Shown in pieces: positions 7,941-33,026 of a stretch of DNA of 64,000 nucleotides. Within the stretch, counting starts at the first letter, position 1; every line of letters starts with the position of its first letter. The stretch spans positions 496,005 through 560,004 of the forward strand of contig CBDCOP010000006.1 in NCBI GenBank assembly GCA_965219845.1, given 5' to 3'. The stretch comes from Dehalococcoidia bacterium. Lineage in GTDB: Bacteria; Chloroflexota; Dehalococcoidia; Lucifugimonadales; Australimonadaceae. A program made the position numbers and the translations under genes. The notes below the pieces were generated by a model. The model worked only from the letters and a program-made list of their open reading frames with translations, was not told the DNA's origin and ran no database searches.

Positions 7941-8159
7941 TCAGGTCGACTGGTAGATGGCGGGGCGGTATCGAGGCTCGGGCACGGGTTTCCCGGCCTC
8001 TCTCGCGGCGTTGATCCAAGCCTCCATCGCTTTCCGAACCTCAGCGAGCGCTTCCTCCGGCGTCTCGCCGAACGCAGAGCAGTACTGAAGGTCCGGGATG
8101 TCCGCGACGTAGCACTGGTCCTCTTCACTGTAGAAAACGTTGATGTGATAGTCCTTCAT
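7941..8159 (-). CDS. hicB: HicB-family antitoxin-like protein (no hicA partner seen)
   Basis: 72 aa. The pattern YSEEDQCYVADIPDLQYCSAFGETPEEALAEVRKAMEAWI is the HicB/UPF0150 N-terminal fold. Confidence 0.75.
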   Translation of the reverse strand: MKDYHINVFYSEEDQCYVADIPDLQYCSAFGETPEEALAEVRKAMEAWINAAREAGKPVPEPRYRPAIYQST

Positions 8160-8171
8160 GAAAGAACGCCC

Positions 8172-8873
8172 CTAGCTCGCCGCGGCAGGCTCCACTTCCC
8201 CGCCCTTGAGCTGCCGGAGGGTGTGCAGGATGGAGGGGGTGGAAGGGCGGTCACCGATGGTCTGCCCGACCTGTACGGCCGCGATGATGCGGTCTGAAGT
8301 GAGAATCATGGTCGTGGGGGCCGCTACGCCGTCGCCGAGGAGGTTGAACACGCCGTATGCGTCGGCGACCTCGTGGTCCGGGTCGGCGAGGACAGGGTAC
8401 CGTGCGCCGACGCGCTCCTGCATCTGCCTGGCGCGCGCGACGTCGTCGGTGCTCAGCGTGATGAGTTCAGTATCCAGCGCGCGTATCTCGTCGTAGGCCA
8501 GTTCCAACTCGCCGAGTTGGGTGATGCAGATCCCTCAGAAGTGGCCGCGATAGAAGACGACGACGACGGCGTCGTTGTCCTCCAGAGTGTCGGAGAGGCT
8601 GACGAGGCCGCCCTGCGCGGCGGCCAACTCGAAGTCGGGCGCCTGGTTGCCGACCGCCGGTTGGAAGGCCGTCGGTTTGGAGTCGCCGTTGCACGAGAGA
8701 GCGACGACGGGAAATAGCAGCGACAAGACGATGAGTACGGAGAAGCCGATGGCGACGCGCTGCCACCACGGGCTCTGGAGGAAGGAGCGGTGGTCTGCCG
8801 GCAGGCGGTTGAGCTCTTCGATCTCGGCGAGTTCTCGTTCGGAGTATTCGTCGTTGTTCCTGGGGCCGTGCAT
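8172..8873 (-). CDS. Membrane-anchored AhpC/TSA-redoxin-like protein with in-frame UGA (probable selenocysteine, motif U-G-I-C)
   Basis: ORFs 8535-8873 and 8172-8507 share one frame and are separated only by TGA (8537-8535). Read-through gives FYRGHF-U-GICITQL, matching the FYRGxWCPxC redoxin motif. N-terminal TM anchor present. Confidence 0.7.
8504..8520 (-). promoter_or_regulatory. SECIS-like hairpin CCAACUC-GGC-GAGUUGG, 14 nt 3' of the UGA
   Basis: Perfect 7-bp inverted repeat read directly from the sequence. Its distance from the UGA and its G-containing apex fit bacterial SECIS expectations. Confidence 0.5.
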
Positions 8874-26788: not shown

Positions 26789-28267
26789 CTAGCTTTTCAT
26801 CGCGTCCAACTGCTCGACGATGAGCCCGGCCACCACCGACGGGTTGGCGTTGCCGCGCGTCGCCTTCATCACCTGTCCCACGAGGAACTTGGCCGCCGTC
26901 CCTTTCCCCGCCAGGTAGTCTGCAACCGCTTGGGGGTTCGCGTCTACCGCCTCGGCGACCGCTGCCGCGAGTTCGTTCGAGTCCGATATCTGGACGAGCC
27001 CGAGGTCCCCCACCACGGCCTGCGCGGACTTGCCGGTGTGGAACATCTCCTCGATGGCGCGTTTCCCCTGCGGTGTGCCGAGCGTCCCCTTCTCCAGCAG
27101 GCCCAGCAGTTCCGCGAGCCGCTCCGGCGCCACGGGCGATTCGTGGATCTCCGTATGCGTCTCGTTGGCCAGCCGCCCGAGTTCCGTCAGCGTCCAGTTG
27201 GCGGCAGCCTTGGCCACGCCATCGGAGCCGCCGCTTGCTCTGGCGTGCCGGATCGTTGCTTCATAGTACTCGGCGAGACCGGGCGACCCGGTCAGCAGCG
27301 TGGCGTCGTAGGCCGGCAGGCCGTAATCCGCGACGAAGCGCTGCCTGCGCTCCTCCGGCAGTTCCGGCAGCAGTTCCTCTATCTCCGCAACCCACGCCGG
27401 GTCCACGTTGAGCGGCGGCAGGTCCGGCTCAGGGAAGTAGCGGTAGTCGTTCGCCTCTTCCTTGCTGCGCAGCGATGTGGTGACGCCCTTGTTCTCCAGC
27501 CAGCCGCGCGTCTCCTGAATGACGCGGCCGCCGGAGTCCAGCACCTTCGCCTGGCGCTCGACCTCGTGCTCGATGGCGCGGAAGACCGAGCGGAACGAGT
27601 TCATGTTCTTGACCTCGACCTTCGTGCCGAACCGGTCGCTGCCCGTCGGGCGGATGCTGACGTTGGCGTCGCACCGGAACGAACCCTCGTCCATATTGGC
27701 CGTGGAGACGCCCAGGTAGCGCAGGATGGTCTGGTAGGACATGAGGTATTGCCGGGCCTCCTCCGCGGAGCGGATGTCCGGTCGGCTGACCATCTCGACC
27801 AGCGGCACCCCGGAGCGGTTCACGTCCACGAGCGAGTAGCCTTCGCCGGTGGCCGCATCGGTGAGGTGGCTCAGCTTGGCGACGTCCTCCTCCATGTGGA
27901 CGCGCTCGATACCGACGCGTCGGCGTTCGCCTTCCACGTTCACGTCCAGATAGCCGTTGACGCAGAGCGGGAGGTCGTACTGGGAGATCTGGTAGCCCTT
28001 CATCAGGTCGGGGTAGGGGTAGTTCTTGCGGTCGAACTTGCTGTGGGAGGGGATGCTGCAGTGGAGCGCCAGCCCAATCATGATGATGGAGCGGATGGCC
28101 TCACGGTTGATGACCGGCAGGGAGCCGGGCAGCCCGAGACAGACGGGACAGACACGGGTGTTGGGCTCGGCGTTCTGGTAGTCGGCGGGGCAGGCGCAGT
28201 ACATCTTGCTGCTGGTCCGCAGCTGAGCGTGCACCTCCAAACCGATGACTGGTTCGTAGTCGGTCAT
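26789..28267 (-). CDS. gatB: Asp/Glu-tRNA amidotransferase subunit B
   Basis: YEPVIGLEVHAQL N-terminus and full-length GatB including the YqeY-like tail. ATG 28267 chosen over the upstream 28342. Confidence 0.95.
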   Translation of the reverse strand: MTDYEPVIGLEVHAQLRTSSKMYCACPADYQNAEPNTRVCPVCLGLPGSLPVINREAIRSIIMIGLALHCSIPSHSKFDRKNYPYPDLMKGYQISQYDLPLCVNGYLDVNVEGERRRVGIERVHMEEDVAKLSHLTDAATGEGYSLVDVNRSGVPLVEMVSRPDIRSAEEARQYLMSYQTILRYLGVSTANMDEGSFRCDANVSIRPTGSDRFGTKVEVKNMNSFRSVFRAIEHEVERQAKVLDSGGRVIQETRGWLENKGVTTSLRSKEEANDYRYFPEPDLPPLNVDPAWVAEIEELLPELPEERRQRFVADYGLPAYDATLLTGSPGLAEYYEATIRHARASGGSDGVAKAAANWTLTELGRLANETHTEIHESPVAPERLAELLGLLEKGTLGTPQGKRAIEEMFHTGKSAQAVVGDLGLVQISDSNELAAAVAEAVDANPQAVADYLAGKGTAAKFLVGQVMKATRGNANPSVVAGLIVEQLDAMKS

Positions 28268-28340
28268 GAGCAGTTCGATTATAGCGCAGAGCCTGCCGGG
28301 AGCGGCGGCGCGCCGAGAACGACGCGGTACAATCCCCCGC

Positions 28341-29819
<1,479 letters not shown>

Positions 29820-30460: not shown

Positions 30461-30554
30461 TGGCGGGGAGCGGCGGAGTCGAACCGCAACGCGTGGGTTA
30501 GCACGCGCTCAGAGGTGTATCAGGCCTTGTCCCGTCCGACGGGCAACGCTCCCC
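30461..30554 (-). tRNA. tRNA-like gene, 94 nt, Sec/allo-tRNA-like 8/4 fold with long variable arm; anticodon arm non-canonical (loop CUGAUAC, nominal GAU)
   Basis: 8-bp acceptor GGGGAGCG/CGCUCCCC, discriminator G plus encoded CCA, T-arm GCGG-UUCGACU-CCGC, GG in the D-loop, 8-bp variable arm. The anticodon stem has only 3 Watson-Crick pairs. Confidence 0.5.
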
Positions 30555-32198: not shown

Positions 32199-33026
32199 AT
32201 GAACAGGCTATCCATCGAGAGGCGGGCGCAGATACTTCAACTGCTCTGCGAGGGTTCCTCGATGCGTTCCGTCACCCGCCTGACCGGAGCCTCCATCAAC
32301 ACGGTGACGAAGCTACTGGTGGATACGGGGGAGGCGTGCATCCGCTACCACAACGAGGCGGTCAACGAGGTCCCGGCGCGTCGTGTGCAGTGCGACGAGA
32401 TATGGGCGTTCTGCTACGCGAAGCGGAAGAACGTGGAGCATGCCGTAGCAGCGCCGGAGGATGCGGGAGACGTGTGGACGTGGACGGGCATCGAGGCGGA
32501 CACGAAACTCATCATCTCGTGGCTAGTGGGGGACAGGGATGCGGAGGCAGCGCGGGTGTTCCTGGACGACATACGGTCCCGCCTGCTGAGCCGAGTGCAG
32601 CTGACGACGGACGGGCACAGGGCGTACCTGGAGGCGGTGGAGGACGTGTTCGGAACGGACGTGGACTACGCGCAGCTGGTGAAGATGTACGGTCAGCCGG
32701 TGGGGGATGAAGCGCGGCGGTACTCTCCGGCGGTGTGCATCGGGGCGCGGAAGGAAGTGGTGATGGGGAAGCCGGTCATGGCCGACGTGAACACGTCGTA
32801 TGTGGAGCGGCATAACCTGACGATGCGGATGAGCATGAGGCGGTTCACGCGGTTGACCAACGCCTTCTCGAAGAAGGTGGAGAACCACGCCTACGCCGCC
32901 GCAATCTACTTCGTGTACTACAACTTCTGTCGAACGCACAAGAGCCTGGGCATGACGCCCGCAATGGCATCGGGCTTGGCAGCGGAGCCGCACACGATGG
33001 CTTGGCTGGCCAGCCTTTCAAACTGA
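32199..33026 (+). CDS. IS1-family transposase (single ORF with N-terminal HTH); element ends not resolved
   Basis: The pattern CDEIWAF...W.W...D..TKLI...TTDG...Y and [27 protein letters not shown] mirrors IS1 InsB (VERHNLNLRQ...FSKS). Confidence 0.8.

Follow-up and report, generated by a model that had tools for sequence, protein, structure and literature searches.

Does an in-frame TGA within a redoxin gene of a Dehalococcoidia bacterium end translation, or is it read as selenocysteine (Sec)? The gene lies on the minus strand of a 64,000-nt stretch of contig CBDCOP010000006.1 (hereafter the window), and the TGA is its codon 113. A first-pass annotation of this DNA had proposed a selenoprotein that is split into two open reading frames (ORFs) by a UGA, with a hairpin resembling a selenocysteine insertion sequence (SECIS) just 3' of this codon. 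By comparing the locus with its strain variants, its homologues and the metagenomic clade to which it belongs, we found that a single gene spans the TGA and that UGA113 is very probably decoded as Sec.

A redoxin gene divided by one in-frame TGA

The features of the gene, all on the minus strand, are as follows.
8172..8873, minus strand: whole gene of the putative selenoprotein, with ATG at 8873, the predicted Sec-UGA as codon 113 and the stop TAG at 8174-8172; 233 residues
8757-8873, minus strand: 39-residue acidic N-terminal tail, conserved in the two closest relatives, L001 and L021
8691..8756, minus strand: hydrophobic segment V40-S60 and then Cys61 (...VVALSC/NG), a signal-anchor or lipoprotein-type signal
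8277..8654, minus strand: AhpC/TSA (thioredoxin-fold) domain, residues 74-199, from Pfam and Protein Data Bank (PDB) alignments
8535..8537, minus strand: UGA codon 113, the U of the U-G-I-C motif, read as Sec from the TGA column in relatives
8526..8528, minus strand: TGC codon of Cys116, second residue of the UxxC redox motif, aligned with the AhpC peroxidatic Cys
8504..8520, minus strand: SECIS-like hairpin, with its 5' arm at 8520-8514, loop GGC at 8513-8511 and 3' arm at 8510-8504

Translation confirmed that the two minus-strand ORFs, 8873..8535 (112 aa) and 8507..8172 (111 aa), share one frame, as the first-pass annotation had stated. The sole break between them is the TGA at 8537-8535, after which the frame remains open to the TAG at 8174-8172. 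Read-through gives the junction peptide ...VVVVFYRGHF-U-GICITQLGELELAY..., and, with Sec at position 113, GHF-U-GICITQLGELELAYDEIR. The joined protein matched the Pfam families AhpC-TSA (98.2 bits, E 4e-28, cutoff 26, residues 74-199) and Redoxin (E 2e-21, residues 74-210); both domains cross codon 113, in agreement with the AhpC/TSA-redoxin-like protein that had been predicted. GC content at third codon positions was 0.88 before the TGA and 0.85 after it. The two adjacent ORFs are one gene, and the deposited gene calls for the locus are, as anticipated, a 112-aa and a 111-aa fragment.

The TGA is shared by all strain variants that we recovered. Contigs from four public runs, belonging to four studies, carried the gene in identical form or with 5-9 substitutions per 851 nt, and none of the differences fell at the TGA or in the hairpin. 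Copies with 4-11 differences, again with TGA and hairpin unchanged, were found in three further public assemblies, one of which is a single 3.49-Mb contig of the same species (ERZ25072076:ctg246004_10x_l; gene copy 99.3 % identical). Because strain variants in several runs and assemblies keep the TGA, it is not an assembly error.

We also asked whether close relatives terminate at this position. In two Chloroflexota loci, L021 (contig MKWU01000047) and L001 (metagenome-assembled genome RHO1_bin_8), the redoxin has the same TGA and hairpin and is 80 % and 73 % identical in amino acid sequence, respectively, to that of the window; the neighbouring housekeeping proteins of these loci are 92-98 % identical to the window's. 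The ratio of nonsynonymous to synonymous substitutions (dN/dS) was 0.20 on the 5' side of the TGA and 0.18 on the 3' side in comparison with L021, and 0.27 and 0.40, respectively, in comparison with L001, at dS values of 0.47-0.63. Neither relative therefore ends its coding sequence at the TGA, and the purifying selection 3' of it indicates that the 3' part has been translated for as long as these lineages have been diverging.

TGA is an ordinary stop codon in this organism: besides the redoxin, 45 genes were called in the 64-kb window, of which 17 end in TGA and none has an in-frame TGA. When the window was screened for coding-like segments that share a frame and are joined by TGA, the redoxin was the only credible case. 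The other candidates were rejected as antisense or off-frame shadows of real genes.

To identify the residue expected at the TGA, we examined 433 relatives obtained at E <= 1e-10 in an exhaustive profile search of 1.84 billion representatives. Among the best 150 of the 433, the column held Cys in 91, typically within FYRGxWCPxC, Ser in 8 and 'W' in 6, and the remaining 45 were fragments, mostly of ~100 aa and starting just past the column. The six 'W' records presumably represent TGA again, as was shown for two of them, P0001 and P0002 (see below). Since 91 of 150 relatives have Cys, the column corresponds to the N-terminal Cys of a CxxC motif. The alignment of Cys homologues thus bears out the proposal that UGA takes the place of the first Cys of FYRGxWCPxC (UxxC), with one refinement: U113 occupies the position of a thioredoxin-type nucleophile and not that of the peroxidatic Cys. 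When the protein was aligned to the AhpC structures 1we0 and 5y63 (E ~1e-7), Cys116 coincided with the peroxidatic Cys, and U113 with the Thr/Ser of the PxxxT/SxxC motif. Where that motif has Pro the window protein has Arg (FYP to FYR), and opposite the catalytic Arg of 'ADRGTF' it has Pro ('AAPTTM'). With the peroxiredoxin Pro, Thr and Arg all missing, the protein is not mechanistically a peroxiredoxin, and its active site is a thioredoxin-like UxxC. Consistently low scores were obtained with NCBIfam models: the best match was PrxU (NF040737), at 48.7 bits against a cutoff of 270, followed by the SelL-related model (NF040769; 43.9 bits against 120) and ResA (NF002854; 41.9 bits against 170), and the window protein is a member of none of the three; its motif is F-U-G-I-C, not the WCxxC of ResA.

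A wider set of relatives showed that the TGA characterizes a clade. A word-indexed protein search returned five matches, of which P0001 and P0002 (39 % identity, encoded by 30 % GC DNA) display Trp at the column. In their DNA the codon is TGA, whereas Trp is encoded by TGG in the neighbouring genes, none of which contains an internal TGA; hence the gene caller had switched to genetic code 4 and the Trp is false. The two records correspond to L020:584-1138 (P0001) and L019:570-1124 (P0002), short contigs of 30 % GC to which code 4 had been applied. A metagenome scan with an alignment of C-terminal halves yielded 75 further loci, and because the search patterns lay 3' of the column, the codon at the column was not biased by the search. 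When these 75 loci were combined with the window, L001, L019 and L020, 78 sequences were readable at the column, with TGA in 73, TAA in 2 and frameshift or extrapolation artefacts in 3; a Cys codon (TGC/TGT) occurred in none of the 78. The clade, whose loci range in GC content from 0.28 to 0.70, thus essentially always has TGA at this column, within the signature FYRG-x-x-U-G-x-C-x-x-Q-[LI]-x-[EDQ]-L.

The two TAA sequences, L053 (Ga0302135_10041447) and L055 (Ga0115002_10007011), are identical copies from two samples. The gene is otherwise intact, its sister L041 has TGA, and the 3' part shows a dN/dS of 0.054 at a dS of 0.60 relative to L041. These alleles represent either a very recent knockout or the decoding of UAA as Sec or another residue. 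Active-site TGA codons were also observed in other AhpC/TSA genes of Chloroflexota, namely L004:6001-6435, L009:2782-3276 and L011:6001-6408. L004 and L009 encode NRGF-x-U-P-x-C, with the TGA at the same column and followed by a conserved hairpin, GGCGC-AGUU-GCGCC, and L011 encodes TSG-U-T, in which Sec would take the place of the peroxidatic Cys in a peroxiredoxin of BCP type.

A covarying hairpin downstream of the TGA

The first-pass annotation had described a hairpin, CCAACUC-GGC-GAGUUGG, 14 nt past the UGA, with the spacing and G-containing apex of a bacterial SECIS. In the window the hairpin begins 14-15 nt past the TGA, is made from the codons for T-Q-L-G-E-L-E, and has its loop beginning 21 nt past the UGA; the bSECISearch paper reportedly places the loop 16-37 nt past the UGA, a range that includes this distance. 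We aligned 48 distinct 69-nt segments from the clade, which required no gaps, and compared the pairing of the two arms. The TG of the Cys116 codon (alignment columns 22-23) was invariant in all 48 sequences, and the loop was G-N-N in every one. Three pairs were likewise fixed in 48/48: CG at 31-45, AU at 32-44 and UA at 35-41. Pair 33-43 was GC in 26 sequences, AU in 21 and GU in 1, and was never unpaired; pair 34-42 was CG in 44 and AU in 4; and pair 36-40 was CG in 37, UG in 1 and another combination in 10. The seventh pair (30-46, corresponding to 8520/8504 in the window) was formed in 34 of the 48 and is lineage-specific. The position of the element, its spacing and its apex were therefore upheld, as was its conservation in orthologues, where it is both kept and covarying; the 7-bp stem was not, the conserved stem being of 6 bp, 15 nt past the UGA.

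The variable pairs are informative because of the codons in which they lie. The stem is composed of Q(CAR)-L/I(CUN/AUC)-x-E/D(GAG/GAU)-L(YUG), with the middle codon as the loop, and pair 33-43 joins two synonymous sites, the third base of the Gln codon CAR and the first base of the Leu codon YUG. Its covariation at synonymous sites means that selection on the protein cannot explain the pairing. This pair flips between close relatives, as between the window (CAA...UUG) and L021 (CAG...CUG), between L024 and L023, and between L056 and L030. Pair 34-42 changes from C-G to A-U through the coupled replacements Leu to Ile and Glu to Asp. Over the alignment, 92.9 % of cells were paired, compared with 84.7 % after shuffling (0/500 shuffles reached the observed value), and the proportion dropped to 15-45 % when the partners were slid by 1-3 columns. 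RNAalifold independently predicted the 5-bp core of the hairpin. Synonymous divergence (pS) was 0.10-0.20 in the 14 codons past the TGA and 0.38-0.45 in the rest of the 3' part, although this sample is small. A longer 'lower stem' around the UGA (GGCCA...UGGCC; GGGCAU...AUGCCC in L019) was considered and rejected, its 3' arm being out of register between clades and not predicted by RNAalifold.

Decoding of UGA113

If UGA113 is decoded as Sec, a ribosome arriving at the codon would meet the hairpin 14-15 nt downstream, whose apical loop G-G-C would recruit SelB-GTP-Sec-tRNA(Sec), and Sec would be inserted in place of termination. The N-terminal hydrophobic segment and Cys61 would then position the domain at the external surface of the cytoplasmic membrane, where the pair U113-G-I-C116 could cycle between selenolate/thiol and selenenylsulfide. 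The activity of the protein would accordingly be that of a thiol:disulfide oxidoreductase, not of a true peroxiredoxin. In this scheme the identity of the residue as Sec, the binding of the hairpin by SelB, the topology and the nature of the substrate are all deduced.

The proposed location draws on the N-termini of the clade. Nearly all members start with a signal peptide whose last residue is a lipobox-like Cys (e.g. ...LIFIGC/SS, ...ALVMAC/GS and ...LALQSC/AV), whereas the window protein, L001 and L021 have, in place of the N-terminal signal peptide, the acidic tail and then the hydrophobic segment; in the window gene, no alternative in-frame start was found nearer to that segment. From these features we infer that the window protein may be an exported, membrane-tethered thiol:disulfide oxidoreductase. 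In L045, L056, L057 and L068 (with cut copies L023, L024, L032 and L064), the Sec redoxin domain is C-terminal in a protein of ~520-550 aa, preceded in order by a membrane anchor, a segment with weak SurA_N similarity and an AhpC/TSA domain that is TlpA-like and carries WCPxC. This arrangement suggests that the fusion proteins could be extracytoplasmic two-domain redox relays.

Several observations weigh against Sec decoding. The case for it rests on sequence comparison, and a search for RNA-seq runs returned none labelled as RNA. In a fold of the single 66-nt sequence, the hairpin was not unusual (z = +0.69 relative to shuffles), so that thermodynamics alone cannot back a SECIS and the significance of the hairpin comes only from comparison with relatives. 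It is also short, with 6-7 bp and a 3-nt loop. The sequences used for covariation are phylogenetically related and the shuffle statistics overstate their independence, yet the AU/GC switches recur between close relatives. Cys homologues, too, frequently have the peptide Q-L-x-E-L, and the conservation is thus partly at the protein level. For this reason we checked codon usage in the arms. In the window, Gln is encoded by CAA in 6.5 % of cases and Leu by UUG in 8.2 %, and the hairpin uses both of these rare codons; in the 30 % GC loci, GAG accounts for 12.9 % of Glu codons and UUG for 15.2 % of Leu codons, and every locus uses both. The covariance-model scan for a SECIS, one of the checks proposed in the first-pass annotation, failed to return one: no Rfam SECIS family matched the window at gathering score or positions 8440-8600 at E <= 10, which is a weak negative given that such models represent bacterial SECIS elements poorly. 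Sec machinery was likewise not detected, there being no tRNA-Sec(UCA) in the 64-kb window according to ARAGORN, no SelA, SelB or SelD among 34 ORFs of the window searched with Pfam, and no match to E. coli SelA, SelB or SelD by tblastn in the window and 470 kb of related loci. Its absence from 64 kb of a genome of ~3.5 Mb says little, and Chloroflexi are documented to possess 8/4-type tRNA-Sec (PMC5389517).

Three other explanations of the TGA have to be considered. A conserved UGA, a hairpin and a translated 3' half show that the codon is recoded but not which residue is inserted; instead of Sec it might be Cys, brought by a selC*-type tRNA-Cys(UCA) together with a SelB-like factor, or Trp or Cys incorporated by near-cognate read-through stimulated by the hairpin. 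SelC* tRNA-Cys/SelB* systems do exist, having been described for some Deltaproteobacteria (PMC7609411), and Sec machinery was seen in neither the window nor the related loci. We nevertheless regard the insertion of another residue as improbable: a Cys codon is the cheaper route to Cys and is used by 0/73 members across very different genomes, the SelC* systems are reported from other phyla (PMC7609411), and the family is on record as one of selenoproteins with many Sec members (PMC2398784, PMC13188914, PMC1088965). If the TGA were instead a true stop, the locus would be a pseudogene, or else two small genes, one for an anchor peptide (the N-terminal part) and one for a redoxin fragment (the C-terminal part) starting from TTG 8507. 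Such a view would account for the exactly two fragments reported by public gene callers and for the TAA at the column in L053 and L055. It is effectively refuted by the conservation of the TGA, which is kept in 73 loci whose frames are intact before and after it, and by the dN/dS of 0.18-0.40 on its 3' side at dS ~0.5-0.6. Moreover, the C-terminal ORF would be left without the whole CxxC motif and the first beta-strand (the Pfam domain starts from residue 74), and its putative TTG start lies inside the hairpin; termination is therefore even less likely than the insertion of another residue.

The remaining explanation, a variant genetic code that reads UGA as sense (Trp in code 4 or Gly in code 25), is suggested by the W at the column in the records P0001 and P0002. 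Those residues are TGA in the DNA, the neighbouring genes using TGG and having no internal TGA, and in the window 17 of the 45 other genes end in TGA, that of the redoxin being the only in-frame TGA in a coding-like frame. The scan of the window for TGA has already refuted a variant code, and we assign it practically no probability.

A tRNA-like gene elsewhere in the window is a side observation. This 94-nt gene (30461-30554, minus strand) was called tRNA-Ile(GAU) by ARAGORN and matched the full length of the Rfam tRNA-Sec model RF01852 (E 3.6e-6; 38 bits, with a gathering score of 47). Its acceptor stem is of 8 bp and its T stem of 4 bp (8/4), the variable arm is long, position 73 is G and the CCA is encoded, but the anticodon stem is weak, with only 3 bp. 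We considered it as the selC needed for UGA113 and ruled it out, as a GAU anticodon cannot read UGA. Its features agree with the published description of the 8/4 allo-tRNAs, which PMC7609411 and PMC5389517 report from Clostridia, Proteobacteria and Acidobacteria and not from Chloroflexota. The gene is present in strain variant X3 with 1 difference, where the flank from 30556 onward is absent, and a contig of the X4 run shares its 3' half and then has an anticodon arm that would read GCG. The segment 30556-30700, just 5' of the gene, is absent from strain-variant contigs, so the neighbourhood of the tRNA-like gene is variable; an IS1/IS240-like DDE transposase ORF (32199-33026, plus strand) lies 1.6 kb away.

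Taking Sec decoding of UGA113 together with these side observations, a broader scenario can be outlined, which as a whole we consider rather unlikely. It would hold that the exported lipoprotein redoxins form a large clade that is nearly always Sec (73 members, no Cys codon), and that the SECIS was carved from the codons of the Q-L-x-E-L helix, with RNA pairing driving the replacements of Leu and Glu by Ile and Asp. Recoding in these lineages would also be more plastic than supposed, given two UAA members under strong purifying selection and an 8/4 GAU tRNA that would be a duplicated selC turned allo-tRNA.

Genomic context and relation to known systems

The genes adjacent to the redoxin, and a second thioredoxin-fold gene of the window, are as follows.
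10664-9438, minus strand: ThrC-like pyridoxal-phosphate enzyme (PALP; Pfam), upstream and co-oriented
9441-9184, minus strand: NIL-domain protein (Pfam), upstream and co-oriented
9162-8887, minus strand: ThiS-family protein (Pfam), with its stop 14 nt before the redoxin start
7941..8159, minus strand: HicB-like antitoxin-family ORF (UPF0150, HicB_lk_antitox), 13 nt downstream of the redoxin stop
28266-29819, plus strand: second thioredoxin-fold protein, with a Thioredoxin_8/AhpC-TSA N-terminal domain and NHL repeats, and without an in-frame TGA

The row of ThrC-like, NIL and ThiS genes presumably resembles those of sulfur-carrier-dependent homocysteine/methionine synthesis (MetM/MetO-like). 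A functional link between these genes and the redoxin was rejected, as the synteny was found only in the two closest relatives, L001 and L021. In these two, the ThrC-like, NIL and ThiS proteins are 94-98 % identical to those of the window and the redoxin only 73-80 %. The HicB-like ORF is present in L021 and not in L001. The second thioredoxin-fold ORF overlaps the start of the divergent gatB (26789-28342, minus strand) by ~76 nt, so that one of the two starts has probably been set wrongly.

The locus illustrates how such genes are stored in public databases, in this case as two meaningless fragments, and in distant members of the clade with a false Trp (code 4) or as ~100-aa stubs. When selenoproteomes or redox proteins are tallied in such uncultured Chloroflexota, or in the marine lineage of 30 % GC, these genes are consequently miscounted. 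The gene indicates that the organism needs selenium. It also offers a clean, covarying SECIS candidate, with natural compensatory variants and rare codons, in a family whose function is only predicted. The gene itself is new and unannotated; its kind is already known, and it opens no new kind of biology.

By published operational criteria, the gene is a member of the Prx-like (pfam00578, UxxC) selenoprotein family, known since 2004-2005 and comprising thiol:disulfide oxidoreductases with UxxC or UxxU, a membership by definition and not by tree (published reference member WP_010940744.1). A 'Prx-like' selenoprotein with a thioredoxin-like UXXC in place of TXXU appears in the Sargasso Sea study (PMC1088965), the corresponding entry of the Global Ocean Sampling study is 'Prx-like 1, pfam00578, UxxC', with 225 Sec forms (PMC2398784), and the family is listed elsewhere among those predicted with high confidence (PMC13188914). 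The window gene has the pfam00578 domain and a predicted Sec in UxxC, not TxxU, and it shows the generic properties of a selenoprotein gene, namely UGA opposite a Cys column, coding conservation on both sides and a conserved 3' stem-loop. Within the family, its clade is distinguished by the fixed FYRG..U signature, by the lipoprotein or anchor signal and by TlpA-like fusions in some members, features not described in the passages of these studies that treat the family.

Other known systems are more distant. PrxU of the Eubacterium acidaminophilum type (TxxU) is likewise a selenoprotein with the same Pfam domain; the predicted Sec of the window protein, however, lies three residues earlier, at the Thr position, and the window gene lacks the peroxiredoxin Pro, Thr and Arg. 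TlpA and ResA share with it a membrane-anchored or lipoprotein thioredoxin fold and a CxxC-type motif at the N-terminus of helix 1, and ResA structures were among its PDB matches (E ~1e-5), but its motif is F-U-G-x-C and not W-C-x-x-C, so that they are functional analogues at most. SelL (NF040769) also combines a Prx-like fold with a Sec motif, xxUxxC/U, and the window protein belongs to a different sub-family. Compared with bacterial SECIS elements of the E. coli fdhF type and the bSECISearch consensus, the window hairpin is very short, with 6 conserved bp, a 3-nt loop and no bulged U.

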